Shown: one piece after another, positions 31,758 through 44,882 of the stretch
How the letters are laid out: each line of letters opens with the position of its first letter
Position numbering within the stretch: the stretch's first letter is position 1
Assembly: GCF_024223415.1 (NCBI RefSeq)
Contig: NZ_CP100500.1
DNA from: Escherichia coli
GTDB taxonomy: Bacteria; Pseudomonadota; Gammaproteobacteria; Enterobacterales; Enterobacteriaceae
Length of the DNA: 64,000 bases
Direction: 5' to 3' (one strand)
Made by a program: the position numbers and the translations under genes
Notes under the pieces: model-generated
Databases searched by the model: none
The model's input: only the letters and a program-made list of their open reading frames with translations
What the model was told of the DNA's origin: nothing

Positions 31758-32600
31758 TCAGGCTGAGAGCACAGAAAGAAAGTGCTTGGCTATTATATCG
31801 TTAATTCTGTCAATCAGTTCCAGCCTTTTGAAAGTGATGTGTGCAGATCCCTTCTTAAAATATTTAATGATGAACATCTCGTCTTCATAGCGCTCTTTAC
31901 CCTGAACGGACTGGATGTGACCATCCAGACGAATAGTGATGTTTTCCCGGTTGTCGGGGATGGGGGTGCCGCTGAACAGATGTAGCATTCTTTCCAGGTC
32001 GGCGAGTCGGTCAGTCTCTTGTCCGGTGATAAGATGAAATCCCCACCGGTCCCATCTCACCAGATTGTTGATAATGATTTTACTTCCAAATTTACAGGGA
32101 GAGTTGGTTTTATAATTCCAGCTCAGTTCCCTGAAGACGTTAATCACTCCCCGCTTAAACACCTCATCCTTGTTCTGGTGCAGTTGTTCAAATGTGCTCA
32201 GAATGTTCGCTTCGCTGATTTCCGGAAAATTATCGTACTCCAGTGACCGGTACCATGTATCACGGGCCTGTGCATCCATTAATGACAGCATCCCGGAACG
32301 TTGCATCAGGTCACGCCAGATTTCACGGTCAAGGTTGCGGGTAATGGCTTTCATTATGGTTTCCGGTTTCTCAGTCAGCCAGCAACCACAGCGAAAATCC
32401 TGTTTCATGGCCCAGTCCGGGGCGGTTTTATCTCCAATACTTTCTGTCATTGCTGAGATTTCTGTCAGTTGCCGGATAAGTGTGTCGATTTGCATCAGTG
32501 TGGTCTTTCGTACAGCCAGAATGTGTCCGATTGAGGTGGAACAGATAACGTCCGTATGCCCGTTGACCACTTCAGGACGGGAGATTGTGATACCTGACAT
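31758..32600 (-). CDS. Hypothetical protein, distal gene of the CP4-like module
   Basis: 280-aa ORF co-directional with the CbtA/CbeA cluster. Confidence 0.5.
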   Translation of the reverse strand: MSGITISRPEVVNGHTDVICSTSIGHILAVRKTTLMQIDTLIRQLTEISAMTESIGDKTAPDWAMKQDFRCGCWLTEKPETIMKAITRNLDREIWRDLMQRSGMLSLMDAQARDTWYRSLEYDNFPEISEANILSTFEQLHQNKDEVFKRGVINVFRELSWNYKTNSPCKFGSKIIINNLVRWDRWGFHLITGQETDRLADLERMLHLFSGTPIPDNRENITIRLDGHIQSVQGKERYEDEMFIIKYFKKGSAHITFKRLELIDRINDIIAKHFLSVLSA

Positions 32601-32684
32601 AATCGTTTTTCCTTTTTGCCGATAAATGAAAACGTCAGCCCTGTTCAGGCTGGCGTCAGTGGAGTGAAGTATAGTGAGTGAGAC

Positions 32685-33038
32685 TCACGCGCTCAGGTGA
32701 ATGAGTTGCAGGTGACGCAGGGTACGGACATCTTCCCTGGCCTGTTCGATACAGGGCAACAATGCTGCCGAATCCGTTTTATCCTCATTGTTGTCAAAGA
32801 TAATCCCCGATTCGCAGTCGGATATTGTCCTGCAGCCACGCAATGTTGTAAACGGTGGTGGAGTGCAGGTTGACTGCTGGTCAGGGTCGTCCACCACGCG
32901 GAGTGAATAACCGTATTCAGCGACCTTGTTAATCAGTTCAGTGAGCTCAACACCATCAATGTCAACGACAATTCGCCCTATATTCAGTGCCTGTACGTTA
33001 ACGCTGTCTGCTTCCAATGTCAGGGCCAGTTTCATCAT
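32685..33038 (-). CDS. YeeW-like small protein
   Basis: 117 aa, starts MMKLALTLEADSVNVQALN..., directly follows and overlaps the CbtA-like toxin gene. Confidence 0.55.
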   Translation of the reverse strand: MMKLALTLEADSVNVQALNIGRIVVDIDGVELTELINKVAEYGYSLRVVDDPDQQSTCTPPPFTTLRGCRTISDCESGIIFDNNEDKTDSAALLPCIEQAREDVRTLRHLQLIHLSA

Positions 33039-33409
33039 TTCGCCTCCGGATACTTACCCAGGGTAATGTTATTTACCGTTCTGTAATTGTCGCGGGTCAT
33101 CAGGCCGGTCGCCCTGCGAGCCCGGAGGATATCGATGCTGTTTATTAACTGAGAGCGGGTACAGGTGCTGAATCCCGGCTGGTCGGTACGCACCAGCGCG
33201 TATTTTTCCACGAGAAAGTTCACCGCATCACACAGTGAAATGCCAGCCTCAATATGCTGCTCAATCACACGTTCATCGGCAAACGGTGTGTCATGCAGTG
33301 TGAGGCCGTAATGCTGGTCCAGCAGCCGGGTCAGCAGTATCTGCCAGATTTCAAGCGGAGACGGGCGTGAACTGGCCGCTTGCTTGGGTAATACAGGTAA
33401 TGTTTTCAT
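33035..33409 (-). CDS. cbtA: CbtA (YeeV)-family cytoskeleton-targeting toxin
   Basis: MKTLPVLP.QAASSRPSP.EIWQILL.RLLDQHYGLTL.DTPFADERVIEQHIEAGISLCDAVNFLVEKYALVRTDQPGF recalled as YeeV/CbtA. Confidence 0.85.
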   Translation of the reverse strand: MKTLPVLPKQAASSRPSPLEIWQILLTRLLDQHYGLTLHDTPFADERVIEQHIEAGISLCDAVNFLVEKYALVRTDQPGFSTCTRSQLINSIDILRARRATGLMTRDNYRTVNNITLGKYPEAK

Positions 33410-33454
33410 TTTAAGTTCTCAGTAATGGGGGAGATAAAGGTGAGATATTCGGGA

Positions 33455-33817
33455 TTATGCTGTTGTTGCGGGAACTGCTGGTGTCGGATAAACAGCCATA
33501 TAAACGTAGCCACAACTGCCGAGGGTGTCGGCTTCGCAGGTCAGCCCTTTTGCATACAGCGTGACGGTATGCTGATGACGGGGACTGAGTTCACCGCTGG
33601 TGAGCATTAATTCCAGTTGTTTCATCAGCAGCGGAAAGGCCTGGTCCGGATGGTATGCATCTGCGTCGCTGAAGCGGCCTCTGATACCGGCGCGGTCGGC
33701 AAGGTAATGCAACCGGTTACCCTCCTGCACCAGACAGGCCCCGAAACAGGGCGTCACGGTGCAGGGTAGTCCCCACCAGGGGCGGTCGTGATTGTCGTCG
33801 GGGAGTGTGTCTGACAC
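33455..33817 (-). CDS. cbeA: CbeA (YeeU)-family antitoxin
   Basis: MSDTLP...DNHDRPWWGLPCTVTPCFGA.LVQEGNRLHYLADRAGIRG... recalled as YeeU/CbeA; precedes toxin gene. Confidence 0.85.
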   Translation of the reverse strand: MSDTLPDDNHDRPWWGLPCTVTPCFGACLVQEGNRLHYLADRAGIRGRFSDADAYHPDQAFPLLMKQLELMLTSGELSPRHQHTVTLYAKGLTCEADTLGSCGYVYMAVYPTPAVPATTA

Positions 33818-33892
33818 GATAAAGTCCTCACAGAAAATCGGTTAAGAATGGTCCGGTAGTGGCGATAATTCTGCTCATCAGAATGCCCTGAC

Positions 33893-34114
33893 TCAGTTCA
33901 GGGTGACACTCATCAGGCGGACATACGGGCCAAAACTGTCCTTACGGCGTTCTGCAAATACAGCCAGCACACCGGGAATATCCTGCACTTCACGACCGGT
34001 ATACGCCTCAGCACTGCCGTGCCAGCGGTATTTACCGGTACAGAACGGAAAAAGACGGGATGTCGGATGTTGTTGGTGAATACGCATGGCTTCACCACGG
34101 GTGATAATTTTCAT
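33893..34114 (-). CDS. YeeT-like (DUF987) protein
   Basis: 73-aa ORF between RadC-like gene and antitoxin, as in CP4-type elements. Confidence 0.55.
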   Translation of the reverse strand: MKIITRGEAMRIHQQHPTSRLFPFCTGKYRWHGSAEAYTGREVQDIPGVLAVFAERRKDSFGPYVRLMSVTLN

Positions 34115-34176
34115 AATGGGATACCTCTGAAGACAGAAGATAAAAGTGAAAACAGGTGTGATGTGGTTGTGACGGG

Positions 34177-34668
34177 TTAAAGCAGACCATGTTCGGCAAA
34201 GGAGAAAACCTGGCTGCCACCGACTATCAGATGGTCCGGCACCCGGATATCCACCAGGCCCAGTGCCTGTACCAGACGTTCCGTGATAAGGCGGTCTGCC
34301 TTGCTGGGTGTGACTTCACCGGACGGGTGATTGTGCGCCAGCACCACGGCAGCGGCATTGTGGTACAGGGCGCGTTTAATCACTTCCCGGGGATGGACTT
34401 CCGTGCGGTTGATGGTGCCGGTGAAGAGGGTTTCACCGGCAATCAGCTGATTCTGGTTATTCAGATACAGCACCCGGAATTCTTCACGCTCCAGTCCCGC
34501 CATGTTCAGAATCAGCCATTCCCGTGCCGCACGGGTGGAGGTGAAGGCCACGCCGGGTTCATGAAGATGGCGGTCCAGGGCTTTCAGGGCCCGCTGAATG
34601 AGGCTGCGCTCGCCGGGCGTCATCGCTCCGGGCAGAAAGGAAAGCTGCTGCATTGTCCCTGCCTCCAT
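34177..34668 (-). CDS. RadC-like JAB-domain protein (YeeS/YfjY family)
   Basis: HNHPSG..P.PS.AD JAMM motif (VLAHNHPSGEVTPSKADRLITERL). Confidence 0.85.
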   Translation of the reverse strand: MEAGTMQQLSFLPGAMTPGERSLIQRALKALDRHLHEPGVAFTSTRAAREWLILNMAGLEREEFRVLYLNNQNQLIAGETLFTGTINRTEVHPREVIKRALYHNAAAVVLAHNHPSGEVTPSKADRLITERLVQALGLVDIRVPDHLIVGGSQVFSFAEHGLL

Positions 34669-35178
34669 TCAGTCGATAATGCGCATAATGGCGCTGCATT
34701 CCGGATGCTGCAGGGCGTAATCCCGCAGCCGGTAATAATGGACCGTCATGGCATAACACTCCGTACGACAGGCATGATGACTGTACGTCATCAGACAGGC
34801 AGCAATGCCGGCGGCTTCCGGGCTCATTTCAGCGCGGTTACCGTTCATGGCATTGAACAGTACCCATGTTTCGTCATCATCGTCATCCGGTTCGGGTGCC
34901 ATAAATGCCCCGCCATTGTTCAGGGTGTACAGATTCCAGATACCACCGCAGTAGTCTTCGCACAGACGGTCCATCCAGCCGAAGACACGGGGCTCCAGGG
35001 CCACCCACTGTGGAATGAGGCCAAAGTGCTGCGGCCAGAAGCTGATGCGCTGTTCATCAGGGACTATGGTGGCAACCAGTTGAGACTGGTTATTCCCTGA
35101 TGCAACGGTTACGGAAACAGAAGGTGTGGTGGAATTATGCGAAGAGGTTGTCATGAGATTATTCCTTATAAAAAGCAA
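34669..35178 (-). CDS. Antirestriction protein (ArdB/KlcA/YfjX family)
   Basis: 169 aa; sequence resembles the YfjX/YafX antirestriction family of CP4 elements; acidic DDDDDE stretch. Confidence 0.65.
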   Translation of the reverse strand: MLFIRNNLMTTSSHNSTTPSVSVTVASGNNQSQLVATIVPDEQRISFWPQHFGLIPQWVALEPRVFGWMDRLCEDYCGGIWNLYTLNNGGAFMAPEPDDDDDETWVLFNAMNGNRAEMSPEAAGIAACLMTYSHHACRTECYAMTVHYYRLRDYALQHPECSAIMRIID

Positions 35179-35245
35179 ATGAATGGAAGAATGCCTGGGG
35201 ACTGGTACAGACGTGAGTCAGGGCTGCACTTTCAGGGAAACAGCA

Positions 35246-36064
35246 TCAGCGCAGGCTCTCCAGCAGCGTTTCTGCCATCACCCACAATGCGCGGTTGAGC
35301 CTAATGTCCGTGTCGATGCTGTGAATGGCACGGGTGTGGATACGTTTTCCTTTAGCGCTGCGACCGGAAATCCCGCCTTTCAGCATATTCTCCTGGATGG
35401 TCTGATATGCACTCCACAGGTCCTTACCGTAATCCTCCCTGCGTCGTGGCGTCAGAATGTCGGCGGTGGTGACCGGCTGATGTTCGTCACCATAACGGTA
35501 AGTCAGTGCCGCCTGTGCCAGCGCCTGACGTGCCGGTGGCGGCAGGACCAGAGACTGCATGGCATCACGCTTTTCCTCAATCCGGTCAAAAACGCCCACT
35601 ACCTCGTAAGCCCCTTCAATGACTCTGTCCACCACATTTCCCCGGTGGGGCACACGGACTTCCCCCAGAGACTGACCGCAGACGCAGCCGTTCTGGCAGA
35701 CGAATCTGAAGTAACCCGGCAGCATCTGGTAGCTGGAGGTACCGTCATGGGAGTTGAGCAGAATAATTTCAGGGACATGTTGTCCGGTTATCTCCCCGGC
35801 CCGCCGCAGACGCAGCATGTGTCTGGTGTATCCCCGGCGGCCCGGGTCGCGCACGCGGGTCTGGCAGGCGAAGAATGGCTGAAAACCTTCCCGCTGCAGG
35901 CTTTCCAGTACGGTGATGGTGGGAATGTACGCATAGCGTTCACTGCGGGAGGTATGCCGATCTTCCCCAAAAATACTGGGTACATAGTGCATCAGTTCTT
36001 CATGTGTCAGCGGACGGTCACGGCGTATCTGGTTTACATGACCAAAACGACTTGCTAATCGCAT
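35246..36064 (-). CDS. DUF932-family protein (YfjQ/YafZ-like)
   Basis: 272 aa; position and sequence pattern typical of CP4-type islands. Confidence 0.6.
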   Translation of the reverse strand: MRLASRFGHVNQIRRDRPLTHEELMHYVPSIFGEDRHTSRSERYAYIPTITVLESLQREGFQPFFACQTRVRDPGRRGYTRHMLRLRRAGEITGQHVPEIILLNSHDGTSSYQMLPGYFRFVCQNGCVCGQSLGEVRVPHRGNVVDRVIEGAYEVVGVFDRIEEKRDAMQSLVLPPPARQALAQAALTYRYGDEHQPVTTADILTPRRREDYGKDLWSAYQTIQENMLKGGISGRSAKGKRIHTRAIHSIDTDIRLNRALWVMAETLLESLR

Positions 36065-36393
36065 GATTTGCTCCTTATGAATGAGTTAGCGGTATAAATG
36101 AAAAAGCCGCGTCTCCCGGAGAAGACGCGGCCTGACCGATGAAATGAATGACGTTTATTGTCTGAGAAGCCCTTCACTGGCGAGCCACGCATTAAGTTGT
36201 TTGCCGGCATCGTATTCAAAATTCCAGCACCGCCAGCGCAACTGACATTCAGCATTGTGGATAACCAGCCGGAAATGCGTTCCCTGGTCATTTTCGATAA
36301 ACACATTGCGATAAGCTGTTGTGATGGCAACCGCCTGCTCTCGAGAGAAAGGGCCTTCGGGCAATAAAACAGGGTGACAGTCCGACATACCGG

Positions 36394-37071
36394 CTATTTT
36401 CCGATAAATTCAACGCTGGCACCGGTGGCATTACCGTCAGCACCAACCGTGACGGTCACTTTGTCGTACGCACGGTCTTCAGGATTGAACACTTCAAACT
36501 CAACCTTATTGCCTTTTACTTCGTAAGAGCCAAAATCAGCGGTTTCTGTTGTTTCCTCGTCATATTCCCGGGCGTATGCCTGCCGGGCAGCCTGCAGGAC
36601 GGAATCTTTATTAATGGCGGGTGTCTGTTTCGGGGAAAAATCGGCAAGTGATGTGACAAATTTCGGACAGACCTTCAGCATATCACCGCGGGTGAATTCC
36701 ATTCGTACACCAAATGCCTGTAAAACGGACACATCACGCTCTGCTATGGAGTGAACGGCTTTTTTGACCATTTCCGGCGCCTGTCCGACTTCCACCTCAA
36801 CAGCCCTGAATCCTGTCTGCTGATTACACATTTGTGATGTGGGGATCAGGTTACCGTTAATATTGATACGGCTGCCCAGGAGCGTCTGTACACCATTCGG
36901 GCATCCCTGCATCAGGCCGGTAATACCAATCGTGCCATTTTTCAGCATTACCAGCGCCTGACCATCTTCCGTCATGGTCTGACACCAGCCGTTTTTGACA
37001 GCCCAGTTGCCGGCGGAGGCGGAGAATGATGCCACAGTGAACAGCAGGGGAAAAAGAATTCTGGTATTCAT
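36394..37071 (-). CDS. Hypothetical exported protein (signal peptide)
   Basis: N-terminal [20 protein letters not shown] signal-like segment; 225 aa. Confidence 0.5.
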
Positions 37072-37189
37072 GACTGACCTCTGAAATTAAAGAGCGTGTT
37101 ATTGATAATGACAGACGGTATACGGCAGTGGTTACCGTAATCCGTTGTCGTGTAAAGGTATACGGTTGCCACGGGGGACTCCGGGGCGC

Positions 37190-38074
37190 TCAGAACAGGT
37201 GATCCCACAGTGTGACCAGCAGGTGGATAATGCGGTCCCGGGTTTTGCGCAGAAGCTGTAACATCCAGGCCGGAAAACTGAAACGGGCAACGGCGTCGTC
37301 AAAACTTTTCCCGATGGTTTCACCAAAAGTCTGTTGTGCGTGTTTCCGGGCCTGTTCAGAGCGGTTTTCCCCCCGGATATGTGAATAAACCGCACTGGTT
37401 GCCTGTGGTGGCAGTGCGTGGATCATCAGCGACACAAACGCCGGAAGGTTCCAGCCGACAGGTGCGGCAACGGAGAGTACCGGAAATGATGAAGGGAACA
37501 GGGTTGCCACCCGGGCTGTCACCGTCGCCAGTGAGAGCGCCTGCTGACGGGACGGGCATTTTTCTGTGTCGTTCCATTCTTCAGCAGGAAACACGCGATC
37601 GGCATGGCTGAGAACAAACAGAAAACGCGAGGGATCTGCACCTTCATTCAGTAAAAACTGATGCATGGCAATATCAGCAGCATACGCACGTTCATCAGCC
37701 CGCAGGATCCAGATAATCAGATCCAGTTCGGGCAGTAACTGACTGTAAAGTGCCCGGTATTCCTGATCATGCTGTGGTGTTTCGCCAGTGCCGGGCAGAT
37801 CGACCAGCGTCATTCTTCGTTCACCGGGCTGAAAGGTAAGACGATGAGCCTGACGGGTGCAGCCGTTCAGCGGATGCGTGGCGCAGACACGGGACTGAAA
37901 AATGGCATTGCACAGGCTGCTTTTTCCGGCACCGGATTTACCCATAATGCCAATAACGGGTTCGTACTGAATGACGCTGCGAAGATGTTCAAGGATTTTC
38001 TGGCGAATTTCTTCAGGAAGAAAGGTCAGATGTGACTTTACGTGTGCGGAGAGGGAAGAATGGCTGAATGACAT
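37190..38074 (-). CDS. GTPase of the YeeP/YkfA/YfjP family (50S ribosome-binding GTPase-like)
   Basis: G1 motif GIMGKSGAGKSSL, DLPG switch region; first gene of the CP4-like module. Confidence 0.8.
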   Translation of the reverse strand: MSFSHSSLSAHVKSHLTFLPEEIRQKILEHLRSVIQYEPVIGIMGKSGAGKSSLCNAIFQSRVCATHPLNGCTRQAHRLTFQPGERRMTLVDLPGTGETPQHDQEYRALYSQLLPELDLIIWILRADERAYAADIAMHQFLLNEGADPSRFLFVLSHADRVFPAEEWNDTEKCPSRQQALSLATVTARVATLFPSSFPVLSVAAPVGWNLPAFVSLMIHALPPQATSAVYSHIRGENRSEQARKHAQQTFGETIGKSFDDAVARFSFPAWMLQLLRKTRDRIIHLLVTLWDHLF

Positions 38075-38174: not shown

Positions 38175-39323
38175 ATGGCTAAAAACAAAGGTATCTGTCG
38201 GAATAAAAAATGCAGCAATCCTGTTTCAGAATTTGATGAGGCAAATGCCCTGAGGTTATGTGATGATCATTATCAGTTATGGAAACGAAATAAAGAGAAC
38301 CGTCGGGTCAGGAATATTTGTCGTATAATCAGTAAATATGACAAAAGTCTGGACCGGGAGATATTTGACAGAGTAATAGATGCTGCAAGAAATCAAACGG
38401 GAAAGAGAATTGTTGAGGACGCAAAAATATTACATCAATTGCGCAATTCAAAGCAAGTAAGAAAAAGTCTTCATAATGGAGTACTCCGGTCACGGGAATG
38501 GCTCAATACACAGGAGTTACTGAGAAGAAAAAATATATCTGTTACAGGTGACTCATTTAAATCTTACATAAAGGATATTGTCAGATTATATTGCTATAAG
38601 TTTCTCTACAGCAGAGAATATCTTAATGAAAACGCATACAAAAAACAATATCAGAGAGTTATTAACCCCAGAGAATTTAATGTTCCGATACTTCAACTTG
38701 AAGTTGCATGGATCAATAATAATTGCCGTTCAAGTGATTCAAGCTCTGATATTATCATCCTTCCCAGGATGATAAGAAGAATGGTTGTATTTAATGATAC
38801 GAAGATAAATAAACAATTAGAGGAAATGTTGGGGGGGATAGCACGAAAAAAAGTCGCAGTAAGGAATAAAGGCGGTCTCTATACCAGAATAAAAAAAGAA
38901 AATGATTTTCGTTCTATGGATAGATTTATGGTGGAAATCGAAAATATCATAAGACCTGAAATATTTCCGACATCAATTTACCCGCCTTTTTCACTTTCAT
39001 TTATCGAGAGAGAATTGCCACTACTGAATCTGGCGCACTCACAGTACAAAAGAGCAATAAGTAAAAAAGTGGCGAATTCAATTTTTTATACTTTGCGAAA
39101 AACTCACGTGGCATTATGGCTGCATCTTGAAATGTTTGCTCTTGTGGCATTCATCAAACTGTATACAGGAAAAGGGTTTGAATTCATGAAAAACATGTGT
39201 GTATTTATAGATTATGATAAAGGGATAATAAAATCCACGCATGAAGAACTGCTGAGTGAAATTAAGTGTAACATTCAGTTGAATTTAAAGGTGAATCCTG
39301 ATAATTTTCCTGAATTAATATAA
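38175..39323 (+). CDS. Hypothetical lysine-rich protein in very AT-rich DNA; N-terminal Cys/His cluster
   Basis: 382-aa ORF, N-terminus MAKNKGICRNKKCSNP...LCDDHYQLW; SD-like ggaag upstream; codon usage clearly foreign. Confidence 0.5.
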   Translation: MAKNKGICRNKKCSNPVSEFDEANALRLCDDHYQLWKRNKENRRVRNICRIISKYDKSLDREIFDRVIDAARNQTGKRIVEDAKILHQLRNSKQVRKSLHNGVLRSREWLNTQELLRRKNISVTGDSFKSYIKDIVRLYCYKFLYSREYLNENAYKKQYQRVINPREFNVPILQLEVAWINNNCRSSDSSSDIIILPRMIRRMVVFNDTKINKQLEEMLGGIARKKVAVRNKGGLYTRIKKENDFRSMDRFMVEIENIIRPEIFPTSIYPPFSLSFIERELPLLNLAHSQYKRAISKKVANSIFYTLRKTHVALWLHLEMFALVAFIKLYTGKGFEFMKNMCVFIDYDKGIIKSTHEELLSEIKCNIQLNLKVNPDNFPELI

Positions 39324-40981: not shown

Positions 40982-41713
40982 ATGAATCAACCAATACACA
41001 ATGCTTACTGGTTATCCCGTTTTGACAGCCTTCTCGACAGTGCCCTGTCGCAGCACCGTGCCGTCTCGTTAATCCGGGTGGATTTACGTTTCCCTGAGTA
41101 TATGCCTGTCACCATCATGGATCCCGATCCGGATTCAGCGGTGATTTCTCGTTTTTTCGAATCCCTGAAAGCCAAAATCCAGGCTTACCAGCGGAAAAAA
41201 CGACGTGCCAACAAGCGTGTGCGTGCAACCACTCTGCGTTATTTCTGGTGTCGGGAGTTTGGCAAGGAAAAAGGCAGGAAACATTATCACGTGATATTGC
41301 TGCTCAACAAAGATACCTGGTGCTCGCCAGGGGATTTCAGCGAACCATCTTCGCTGGCGACGATGATCCTGGAGGCATGGTGCAGCGCCCTGCATCTTGA
41401 GGCCTGGCAAGGCGATGGCCTGGTCCATTTTTCCAGGTGGACGCCTTCCCGTAAACCAGCATCGTCTGATGCTCGCCCTTCTTCCGATGACACGCCTTTG
41501 TCGGGTGGATGTTCTGATACCAGGAAGGCTTCAGAAAAAAAGCCGGGTGAAGCCGCTGTTCTCTGGATCAAGCGTGGTGATGTGGAAGCGCTGCAGAAAG
41601 CCCGGAACAGAGCCAGTTATCTCGTGAAATATGAGACGAAGCAGCATGACGGTTCCGGGCAACGTAATTATGGTTGCAGTCGTGGGCCGGGGCGTCTGCT
41701 GGATGGCAGGTGA
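40982..41713 (+). CDS. YagK/YfjJ-family protein (inovirus Gp2-like)
   Basis: 243 aa; ...SLIRVDLRFPEY...KHYHVILLLNKD... pattern recalled from CP4-element yagK/yfjJ genes. Confidence 0.55.
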   Translation: MNQPIHNAYWLSRFDSLLDSALSQHRAVSLIRVDLRFPEYMPVTIMDPDPDSAVISRFFESLKAKIQAYQRKKRRANKRVRATTLRYFWCREFGKEKGRKHYHVILLLNKDTWCSPGDFSEPSSLATMILEAWCSALHLEAWQGDGLVHFSRWTPSRKPASSDARPSSDDTPLSGGCSDTRKASEKKPGEAAVLWIKRGDVEALQKARNRASYLVKYETKQHDGSGQRNYGCSRGPGRLLDGR

Positions 41714-42069
41714 GCCCTGTAAAACGACATCCGGTGCCTGAGCTTATGCTACAGGACGTTGGCTGACGCCCTTAGCTCGTTTTCTGAAAAAGTCGTCCTG
41801 AAGTCATGCAACGGTATTTTTCTCTGCTTTCGCTCCTGGAAACACTCCGTCGGTAAAACCTTACTGTCCTGCTTAATGATGTGAACCGAAGTCAACGGAG
41901 ATCATTCATTCTGAACCTGCATCCGGTGTTCTGTCCCTTGTCGGTTACCTGATCTTCCCGTTCTGCCGCGGTTTTTCACTTATTCCATCAACCCCATACG
42001 CAAGCCATAACACGTCAGCGCATCCACGGGCAGGACGCGTTGTGGGCTGCGTATAACGGAACATATCTT

Positions 42070-42642
42070 ATGAATGCTATCCCTTATTTCGACTATAGCA
42101 TGGCGCCCTTCTGGCCATCTTATCAGAACAAAATCATCGGCGTTCTCAACCGTGTGTTGCGCGAGCAGTCCTGCTCCCGAATACGGCGGATCCTGCTTCG
42201 TCTGCCGGGGGAACATGGCAACATCTTCAGCGACAGAAAAACCTGGTTCGGTATGGCCTTTATCGAAACCGTCAGTGCGCTGATGAATGCAACACCCGGA
42301 CGTGACCTCTGCTGGCTCCTGACTCGTCATCCTGAAAAACCGGAATACCACGTGGTGCTGTGCGTCAGACAGGAGTATTTCGACGGCCCTGAACTGGATC
42401 GGCTGATTCTGGATGCCTGGAGCAACGTACTGGGCTTCGCGTCACCGGGTGAAGCGGCACCGTACCAGAAACAGATAACCCGGGATGTGGTGCTGGACAG
42501 TTGTTCACCGGACTGCGAAGAGAGACTCAAAGAGCTGATATGGGCGTTCAGTGATTTCGCCCGCGATCATCGTGGTGTGCGCGATCCGGAAGCCCGTTAC
42601 CTCGCCGGTAATCCCTGGTATCCCGTAGCAGGCCAGCTCTGA
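42070..42642 (+). CDS. Second YagK/YfjJ-family paralog (ORF track start 42040 is TTG; ATG 42070 preferred)
   Basis: Starts MNAIPYFDY... parallel to MNQPIHNAY... of the first paralog; ...RILLRLPGEHG...EYHVVLCVRQEY... Confidence 0.5.
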   Translation: MNAIPYFDYSMAPFWPSYQNKIIGVLNRVLREQSCSRIRRILLRLPGEHGNIFSDRKTWFGMAFIETVSALMNATPGRDLCWLLTRHPEKPEYHVVLCVRQEYFDGPELDRLILDAWSNVLGFASPGEAAPYQKQITRDVVLDSCSPDCEERLKELIWAFSDFARDHRGVRDPEARYLAGNPWYPVAGQL

Positions 42643-42710: not shown

Positions 42711-42947
42711 ATGTTGACCTCAATGACAGGTCACGACAGCGTATTGCTGCGTGCCGACGATCCCCTGATCGACATGAACTACATCACCAGCTTCACTGGT
42801 ATGACCGACAAATGGTTTTACAAGCTGATCAGTGAAGGCCATTTCCCTAAACCCATCAAACTGGGGCGCAGCAGCCGCTGGTACAAAAGTGAAGTGGAGC
42901 AGTGGATGCAGCAACGAATCGAGGCATCACGAGGGGCAGCAGCATGA
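42711..42947 (+). CDS. alpA: AlpA-family prophage regulatory protein (HTH)
   Basis: 78 aa; ...LIDMNYITSFTGMTDKWFYKLISEGHFPKPIKLGRSSRWYKSEVEQWM typical AlpA. Confidence 0.8.
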   Translation: MLTSMTGHDSVLLRADDPLIDMNYITSFTGMTDKWFYKLISEGHFPKPIKLGRSSRWYKSEVEQWMQQRIEASRGAAA

Positions 42948-43060
42948 AACGTGTTGTAATGCCGGTACGCTGGCAATGTGCAAAATACCAGCGTTGGTAT
43001 TGTGGAAGCCGGCCCTGTCCCTGGTGCTGGCGACACTCCCGCTCATCTTTCTGCTGACAC
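42944..43060 (+). CDS. Candidate 38-codon Cys/Trp-rich small ORF translationally coupled to alpA
   Basis: ATG overlaps alpA stop (ATGA); translation MKRVVMPVRWQCAKYQRWYCGSRPCPWCWRHSRSSFC; below ORF-track size cutoff. Confidence 0.3.
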
Positions 43061-44882
43061 CCTCTGGTCAGCCAGCGGACTATCGTCCTTTCCTGACCGA
43101 TTCGTCATTCCATTCTTATTGATTATAACTGGCATTACACCGGTGCCGGCGTGCTTTTCTGTAGATCTGCACCGGTTTAACAAAATTCGACAAGGTTTGA
43201 AGGAGTATTCTGTGCAAATAAGCGAGGCCCTAATTTCAGAACCGGGGAAAATCCAGCGTTTTGTTCAGCAGGCGGTGGACCACTAGCCGCGTCTGCTGGC
43301 AGTCCACTTCACGCTTGATTCGGCTGAAGGGAATATTGACGAGGGGCAGATTCATGCATTCTGTACTGCCTTTTACCGACAGGTGCACGAGCGTATTACT
43401 GAACGTAATCACACGGCCAGCCCATCCTCGCCGGTGGTATTACGCTGGTTGCGGGAACAACATGGAGGAGCAACAATACGATGCCTGTTGCTGTTCAGCC
43501 AGGAGCTTTTCTGCCATCCGCGAGCCAGTGTGACAGTTGATGAAGAATGTTCACAACTGGTGGATTTACTACAACAGACTTGGCAGGTGATAAGCGCTGG
43601 CGGACAATGCCGGGTGGAAAAGCGTTTTCAGGTCGTCCGGGGTGATACATCTGGCCAGTATGTTGCGTTAAAAACAGTCGCATTGTCTCTGGGGTTACCG
43701 GTTGTGATCGCCATTACCCATCGTCCGGTACAGCGCTGTACATTGATTACAGCTCAGTGAATCAGCGCAGTTGTGCAGTCAACGAGGTTTTCTGGCTTTT
43801 CGTCGGTCATTCAGCATCATTAAACGGGTCTCTGCCTCTTTCTGTTCCTGTGGTGTCACTTCCCCGCACGGCTGACCGTTCAGGTTGTAACGGGCGCCAC
43901 CTGCTATTAACGCACGGTAATAGCGCGGAGACTGCACATAAGACGCCACTGCTGCATGTAATGTACCAGCGCCAAACGCCAGTTCTCGGATGGCGATATC
44001 CTGTATCAGGTCGTCAGGTATCCCCACTTTAAGTGGTTTTGTTTTTTTCCCGGTTGAATGACTCAGGCCAGAGTTCCACAAGACGAATAATGCGCTTACG
44101 GTTTTTGCTCTGGCGTTTTGTCATGTCGCCACGGTGTTTTATCAGCAGGTTTCTGTTTATCGTTCAACTGTGGTATCTGGTCACCGGCCTTCATTTTGTA
44201 TGCTGTGTCCGTTTTATTCTGCAGCGGCGTTGCCGGTGATTTACTGAAAATACCCTGCGGTTTACGGTTAATGGTCAGAGTTACCATCAATTTTGTTACC
44301 TCGCGCTGTCAATGGAAGTAGTACCTCATCCGATATCTGAAAATGTTTTCCGGTGGATGTTACAGCGAATTTCATGTAAGACATGTTGTTGTCGGTATTG
44401 TTCAGTACTGTGCGTTGTGAGCGTATTCGTTATCAGACAGAGGGGCAGGGAACAAACGTCAGAGGTTAAGGATATCCGGGAACAAATGGCGTAAACGGAC
44501 ATCTCAGTGCCTGAGAAACAGTACAGGTCAGGCCATCATGGCCTGCAAACAGAGCCCTGGCGACCCCGTGGCCGAAAACGAAACAATAACCCGCGCGCAG
44601 TGCGAGGAATCCGGATGTGAAGCAATCAGCAGGTAATATTAATGGCAGGACCAGCAGGTTCTTTAAACAAACGAACATGCTGTAATTGATATTTTGCTTA
44701 TTGTATTTTCTTTTTAGTTATTAAATTAATTTATTTACGAAAAATTTTCTGCAGATACAGGATGGGAATTCAGGGTGTCATCACGCCTTATGATGACACC
44801 CTTCCCCTGGTTGTGGAAAACCGAAGGATATATCAGGTTCAGCAACAAAATCAGTGAGCTGAAAGATACCAGTCCCCCAGCT

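Follow-up and report, generated by a model that had tools for sequence, protein, structure and literature searches.

We analysed a 64,000-nt stretch of Escherichia coli DNA (hereafter the window), in which a divergent CP4-44/CP4-57-like block on the minus strand (31758-38074; DUF4942, DUF5983, CbtA toxin, RadC, DUF932 and a YeeP-like GTPase) is separated by a 382-aa ORF with no Pfam match (38175-39323, plus strand) from an alpA module. The module consists, in order, of a YagK_YfjJ_C gene (40982-41713), a 200-aa ORF (42040-42642), an alpA-like gene (42711-42947, plus strand), the small ORF examined here and a UCP030791 gene. The alpA-like gene encodes a 78-aa protein of the winged-helix/HTH regulator or excisionase family, which matched Pfam Phage_AlpA (E = 2e-10) and HTH_17 (E = 1.8e-5), and its orthologs are annotated by PGAP as 'helix-turn-helix transcriptional regulator'. 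The UCP030791 gene, which is YagK/YfjJ-like, starts with GTG and is the next gene of the operon (43212-43760, plus strand), is a pseudogene: an in-frame TAG at 43284-43286 stands in the place of TGG (Trp25) in the intact ortholog of E. coli 1303 (L001). The flank at 46.9-49.2 kb, with PTS and transketolase genes, was 100% identical to E. coli chromosomes.

The small ORF spans 42944-43057 on the plus strand and comprises 37 codons and a TGA stop (43055-43057); its product is MKRVVMPVRWQCAKYQRWYCGSRPCPWCWRHSRSSFC (37 aa). A previous sequence-only reading of this DNA had proposed a missed small protein gene of 38 codons reaching to 43060. The ORF exists as described, except that it ends 3 nt earlier, at 43057, and that the 38 codons include the stop. 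The same reading had placed its start codon over the stop of alpA, and the ATG (42944-42946) and the alpA TGA (42945-42947) do form a 4-nt ATGA overlap in the window (junction gcagcagcATGAaacg; wider sequence ...gcagcagcATGAaacgtgtt...). A Shine-Dalgarno-like GAGGGG lies within the alpA coding sequence at 42931-42936 (plus strand), 7 nt 5' of the ATG, and most homologs have GAGGAG at this site in the alignment. The translation contains the five Cys (12, 20, 25, 28 and 37) and four Trp (10, 18, 27 and 29) that had been counted before; the C-x4-C-x2-C cluster that had been picked out is present too, as one part of the longer CxxC-x9-CxxC motif that characterises the family. The codons of the predicted metal ligands are C12 (42977-79), position 15 (42986-88), C25 (43016-18) and C28 (43025-27), and an extra Cys20 is encoded at 43001-03. 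At position 15 the window has TAC (Tyr, 42986-42988), the family residue being Cys. Codons 9-30 form the conserved core (RWQCAKYQRWYCGSRPCPWCWR, 42968-43033, plus strand; alignments A1-A4 and A6), and the C-terminal tail behind it (HSRSSFC plus stop, 43034-43057, plus strand) is unconstrained and varies among copies. As many as 82 ORFs of 25 aa or more were counted in the 6 kb around it, so a bare 37-codon ORF is not beyond chance, and the signal of a gene lies in its conservation.

We therefore examined alpA loci beyond E. coli. An AlpA scan of a genome collection returned 39 loci, and ORFs of 44-52 aa were found directly after alpA in Citrobacter-like isolates, Superficieibacter, Siccibacter, Tenebrionibacter, Hafnia, Kosakonia and Trabulsiella. 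The frame of the window and the ORFs of these genera share the motif RW-x-C-x2-C-x-R-x-Y-C-G-x2-P-C-P-x-C, where the version of the other genera (P-x-R-W-x-C-x-x-C-x-R-Q-Y-C-G-x-K/R-P-C-P-x-C) corresponds to VRWQCAKYQRWYCGSRPCPWC in the window. A profile built from the non-E. coli members only (A3) was searched against the six-frame segments of the 64-kb window, and the results revealed a single significant match, at 42893-43054 on the plus strand (E = 3.8e-11), with a runner-up at E = 0.009. Between distant orthologs, Nei-Gojobori pairwise dN/dS was 0.12-0.35 for this frame, compared to 0.7-2.2 for the two alternative frames, and the pattern W, C, C, G, C, C was invariant across genera at 41-60% identity. 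The family is narrow, with 100 clusters at E <= 1e-3 among 1.84 billion representative proteins.

These comparisons bear on the possibility that the small ORF is a chance ORF whose apparent conservation reflects an element at the DNA or RNA level or recent common ancestry. A 37-codon ORF is in itself unremarkable, and a 21-nt DNA block close by is conserved whatever the frame, both of which are compatible with such an origin. However, dS among the other-genus orthologs was 0.4-1.1 and the peptide was nonetheless kept, the region had no Rfam match, and its RNA fold was ordinary (z = -0.34). A chance ORF is further contradicted by the A3 profile match and by the frame specificity of dN/dS, and we give this explanation next to no probability. 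The frame-conservation check suggested earlier thus has a positive outcome between genera, and substitutions are skewed to synonymous and third positions in the small-ORF frame alone. By these substitution patterns the small ORF is shown to be a genuine gene under purifying selection in its own frame only, and we hold it as nearly certain that the members of the family are real genes.

To place the family, we compared its members with domain collections. PF11682 (Zn_ribbon_11) was the best Pfam match for three of the four other-genus orthologs scanned, with scores for the four of 30.9, 20.4, 20.3 and 10.1 bits against a gathering threshold of 24, so that one passes; two orthologs are named 'putative zinc ribbon protein' by NCBI. 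The window peptide gave nothing in Pfam at E <= 0.1, the E. coli consensus peptide gave no Pfam match at E <= 1, and Pfam, NCBIfam, PHROG and PADLOC scans of both peptides returned nothing usable. The E. coli peptides lie below the Pfam model, and the link to PF11682 came via the orthologs only. In profile alignments with hhalign, the E. coli clade matched the stand-alone orthologs, among them the one that passes Pfam, with a probability of 98.7% (E = 3.1e-16); against bona fide PF11682 domains taken from the C-termini of DUF7828 proteins the probability was 94.1% (E = 1.2e-7). As judged by these alignments, the small-ORF family is shown to be homologous to the PF11682 domain, and we file the window protein as a divergent relative of PF11682, below the Pfam gathering threshold.

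PF11682 ('Probable zinc-ribbon', formerly a DUF) has the core W-x-C-x2-C-x3-Y-x-G-x3-C-x2-C in common with the small-ORF family and occurs in the same islands. The two differ in setting: the bona fide PF11682 members at these loci are the C-termini of 125-160-aa DUF7828 proteins, whereas the mini ribbon stands alone at 30-60 aa, and the E. coli clade adds a central Cys and a P-C-P-x-C-W-R signature. We accordingly describe the small-ORF family as a narrow enterobacterial family of predicted stand-alone mini zinc ribbons (30-60 aa). Since PF11682 is a family of unknown function, membership gives the mini ribbon no mechanistic explanation.

The homology also bears on a reading in which the act of translation alone matters, so that the ORF would serve as a coupling or leader device for the downstream gene or for alpA mRNA stability and its peptide would be functionless. 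Such a role would fit the ATGA overlap and a tail of variable length, but a leader would neither retain the invariant W, C, C, G, C, C residues at dN/dS of 0.12-0.35 nor be homologous to a protein domain in hhalign. With these residues invariant across genera at high dS, we rejected the leader-peptide reading, to which we attach very little probability.

Ligand and non-ligand cysteines could be told apart in the broader domain alignment (A7) alone, where Cys 12, 15, 25 and 28 were invariant and Cys20 was specific to the stand-alone clade. AlphaFold2 (AF2) run on a 44-sequence alignment gave a mean pLDDT of 71.8 and modelled a hairpin (strands 9-11 and 18-20) that carries the first knuckle and a helix (26-34) whose N-terminus holds the second CxxC. 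A Foldseek search of this model against the PDB found no significant match (best E = 3.5), and its non-significant top matches were mitoribosome chains and a RanBP2-type (zf-RanBP) finger. A sequence profile search of the PDB gave weak CxxC/CPxC matches to generic metal knuckles, namely rubredoxin, ribosomal L33/eL43, TFIIE and RING (E = 0.013-1); none of these matches is significant, and they support a general metal-knuckle reading alone, not homology or function. Small four-Cys zinc proteins are known from mobile elements: Ogr/Delta proteins are zinc-finger transcription factors that activate late genes of P2/P4-type phages and satellites, and these elements also carry AlpA/Vis-type regulators. 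Ogr is about 72 aa long with the spacing C-x2-C-x22-C-x4-C, whereas the mini ribbon is spaced C-x2-C-x9-C-x2-C, and Pfam, NCBIfam and PHROG scans of the small-ORF family gave no similarity to Ogr/Delta. We consider it quite likely that the family forms a zinc ribbon, as predicted. With the four Cys invariant in A7, Tyr15 of the window replaces a predicted ligand, and the window copy, with C12, Y15, C25 and C28, departs from the four-Cys, two-knuckle arrangement, one of its knuckles being broken.

To assess how the small ORF varies within E. coli, we collected further copies. Of 5426 complete E. coli genomes, 2764 contain sequence that matches the 751-nt alpA/small-ORF region (80-93% identity); a metagenome search with a 20-mer taken from the end of alpA (3' side) gave 120 further loci, and an AlpA scan of IMG/VR gave one E. 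coli-type locus and no more. The resulting E. coli-type set held 127 copies (79 unique), among which 88 have an intact CxxC-x9-CxxC core, 9 carry the window-like Cys15-to-Tyr change, 15 a 26-nt deletion and 15 other damage (nonsense, frameshift, ATG to ATA or an unrecognisable start region); about 30% of the copies are thus disrupted or altered. Across the 90-nt core of 41 unique long-form sequences we counted 59 site events, 29 of them at third positions, with 21 synonymous and 38 nonsynonymous events and an omega-like ratio of 0.43, compared to 1.12 and 0.99 in the other frames. As this ratio is only moderately below 1, constraint within E. coli may be relaxed. Synonymous TGT/TGC changes were common at the Cys20 and Cys25 codons. 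The constraint is limited to the first ~30 codons; the later sequence varies through 1-nt and 4-nt indels, and ORF lengths among the copies were 30, 36, 37, 42, 48, 50, 51, 57, 74, 97 and 122 aa.

This variation raises the question of the window copy itself. The family may be real while the copy in the window is a decaying, non-functional allele that has lost a ligand in an eroding island module. Position 15 is Cys throughout alignments A3 and A7, in 88 of the 127 E. coli-type copies and in all 17 aligned other-genus orthologs; the adjoining downstream gene has its TGG-to-TAG change at 43284-86, and other E. coli-type copies are outright disrupted. On the other hand, the nine C15Y copies carry several tails, fusions and backgrounds with the start and the remaining core intact, and the occurrence of the change on such varied tails and fusions means that the allele has persisted. 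Moreover, the nearly invariant Cys20, which lies between the knuckles in the stand-alone clade, could replace the lost ligand. We consider a decaying allele a serious possibility that falls somewhat short of an even chance, and the statement that the C15Y allele of the window is still functional stands no higher. The activity of this allele may be reduced or lost, or Cys20 may stand in for the missing ligand, and the alpA module in the window is probably eroding.

The 26-nt deletion maps to a direct repeat inside the small ORF. An 8-nt repeat AATGCCGG at 42958-65 is followed 26 nt further on by a degenerate copy AATACCAG at 42984-91 (hotspot 42958-42991, plus strand), the degeneracy of this second repeat in the window being due in part to the C15Y change. 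Loss of one repeat and the spacer (26 nt) joins the MKRV start to a hydrophobic frame. The deletion occurs on at least three divergent haplotypes (L003, L057, L059 and metagenome loci), and the downstream sequence of one deletion copy matches a long-form copy at 100% identity but other deletion copies at only 89%, a pattern which suggests that the direct repeat is a slippage hotspot. As the deletion shifts the frame of the start and indels follow past codon 30, no frame is conserved through all 114 nt.

In the window this hydrophobic frame forms an ORF of 48 aa in the +2 frame (MCKIPALVLWKPALSLVLATLPLIFLLTPSGQP..., 42976-43122, plus strand) that overlaps the small ORF, and in deletion copies PGAP annotates a hydrophobic product (MKRVAMSALVLRKSALSLVLATLPFIFLL...). 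We therefore considered that the real product might be this +2-frame peptide, a small membrane protein or type I-like toxin, with the Cys/Trp frame incidental. The frame is annotated by PGAP in 26-nt-deletion copies (41-52 aa) and is open in many long-form copies. Nevertheless, its omega-like ratio of 0.99 in the core indicates no constraint, its C-terminal half is wholly altered by indels (lengths 19 to 111 aa), and it has no counterpart in the other genera, where the Cys frame alone is conserved; its Leu/Val richness results from TGY, TGG and CCN codons being read out of frame. With no selection, no orthologs and no conserved C-terminus, the hydrophobic frame was rejected and is highly improbable as the real product. 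The conserved frame itself does not fit a type I or small hydrophobic toxin, as it is basic and contains no hydrophobic or transmembrane stretch, and PADLOC gave no match; the suggestion of a toxin made with the first description of the ORF finds no support, and a regulatory role, suggested alongside it, is plausible for the predicted product.

There is a slim prospect that the 26-nt deletion acts as a mutational ON/OFF toggle within a two-protein switch, formed by AlpA and an obligate ribbon, for excision or transcription of the island. If so, a zinc ribbon would be swapped for a hydrophobic peptide and the behaviour of the island would switch heritably. In any event, a short direct repeat has been seen to rewrite a small gene repeatedly.

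Changes at the alpA 3' end give a further route into the hydrophobic frame. At three metagenome loci (L070, L138 and L141), alpA has lost 1 nt close to its 3' end and with it its stop codon, and AlpA continues into the +2 hydrophobic frame with the small-ORF ATG retained inside. The alpA stop is also missing from L088 and L160, whose sequence differs near the alpA 3' end.

The most constant neighbour of the mini ribbon is alpA. In all loci the ribbon lies directly 3' of an AlpA-type gene: the ATGA overlap of the window recurs in 114 of 122 E. coli-type copies, in support of the translational coupling to alpA that the sequence-only reading had put forward, and elsewhere the arrangement varies between a 4-nt overlap and a gap of about 33 nt. 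By this conserved overlap, alpA and the small ORF would form a translationally coupled pair. The conserved order is YagK/YfjJ (Rep-like), AlpA, mini ribbon and DUF7828/Zn_ribbon_11 or UCP030791, and three additional genomes or metagenomes show the same gene order; the ribbon accompanies only those AlpA proteins whose clade sits behind YagK/YfjJ genes. AlpA-family proteins are excisionases or activators of CP4-type elements, and excision of the CP4So prophage requires AlpA (PMC5148205). The upstream gene of the window belongs to the same family as AlpA of CP4-57 and CP4So. In CP4-57 of K-12, in contrast, alpA is followed by yfjI and no zinc ribbon is present, and a six-frame HMM scan of K-12 CP4-57, CP4-6 and KpLE2 (CP4-44 left out) found no family member. 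As these K-12 elements do not carry the family, K-12 ribosome-profiling data are unusable for the small ORF.

From this arrangement we propose that ribosomes finishing alpA would re-initiate on the small ORF, giving similar amounts of both products. Cys 12, 15, 25 and 28 would hold one Zn2+ in a hairpin-plus-helix knuckle fold, and the short basic N-terminus together with an Arg/Trp-rich surface would contact a partner. The mini ribbon would then be an accessory subunit of the AlpA regulatory/excision module of the island, binding AlpA, DNA or RNA. In this form, the small ORF as a genuine gene for a mini zinc ribbon co-made with AlpA and accessory to its module is the reading we favour, with moderate confidence. 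That the ribbon acts together with AlpA is, taken as a separate claim, tentative and rather doubtful. AF2 modelling of AlpA and the ribbon joined by a Gly/Ser linker, on a 21-row paired alignment and with no interface measure, gave a pTM of 0.41 and left the ribbon pLDDT unimproved; this model was counted neither in favour of a complex nor against one.

The genes further downstream offer another candidate partner. Downstream of alpA and the mini ribbon, the other genera encode one or two paralogous proteins of 112-158 aa, at a distance of 0.1-0.5 kb for DUF7828; these mostly combine an N-terminal DUF7828 domain (CoiA_N-like CxxC...H) with a C-terminal Zn_ribbon_11 (L011 2995-3830, L008 2983-3396, L183 3266-4053 and L184 3636-4094). 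The partner might accordingly be a Rep-like YagK/YfjJ/UCP030791 protein or DUF7828, with the mini ribbon as a detached C-terminal Zn_ribbon_11 module. The presence of this domain at the C-terminus of the DUF7828 proteins lying 0.1-0.5 kb downstream agrees with such an origin, and in seven metagenomic copies and one protein cluster the ribbon frame continues into UCP030791. Through these read-through fusions and the shared DUF7828 domain, the Rep-like neighbours are as much indicated as AlpA. However, the ribbon holds a fixed position with respect to alpA, whereas what follows downstream varies (DUF7828 in the other genera, UCP030791 in E. coli), the UCP030791 fusions stem from a deletion in one lineage, and one fusion of AlpA with the ribbon exists as well. 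We regard a Rep-like or DUF7828 partner as unlikely, and keep AlpA as the partner in the preferred reading.

As for the fusions themselves, the read-through from the ribbon into UCP030791 is in frame and exceeds 120 aa in one lineage (L079, L090, L119 and L175; protein P0017). In a JGI metagenome contig (L182 30-320), a complete AlpA HTH domain and the mini ribbon are joined in a single ORF of 96 aa; this would fit a 1-nt loss just before the alpA stop, and, coming from a single contig, may be a sequencing error.

The small gene is mostly unannotated in genomes. Among 11 RefSeq E. coli loci that we fetched, PGAP left seven without any annotation between alpA and the next gene and gave three a 41-52-aa 'hypothetical protein' from the same ATGA start, in the hydrophobic frame that the deletion creates; the eleventh, the O157:H7 copy, has a disrupted alpA and is unannotated downstream. 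Literature searches on the Pfam family, the peptide, AlpA together with zinc ribbons, and YagK/YfjJ yielded nothing of relevance, and no paper mentioning the small-ORF peptide or the PF11682 family was found. What is new here is an unannotated, sub-threshold, stand-alone member of a functionally uncharacterised Pfam family, whose constant tie to one AlpA clade is absent from the searchable literature. The finding places a conserved, selectable small protein at the regulatory end of CP4-44/CP4-57-like islands, which also encode CbtA-type toxins, RadC and, in this case, YagK/YfjJ Rep-like proteins, and it overturns nothing known. AlpA thereby becomes a fixed genomic partner for the orphan domain Zn_ribbon_11, whose function can now be approached by experiment.

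Downstream of the small ORF, promoter and terminator scans and RNA folding of 43040-43230 gave nothing beyond shuffled controls. Within this interval lies a 21-nt block, TTCCTGACCGATTCGTCATTC (43090-43110, plus strand), which contains a TGAC-N6-GTCA dyad and occurs once in the window. The core of the block is conserved in 103 of the 127 E. coli-type copies, and because it is kept in differing reading frames, the constraint acts at the DNA or RNA level. The block is a candidate operator and may serve, for example, AlpA.
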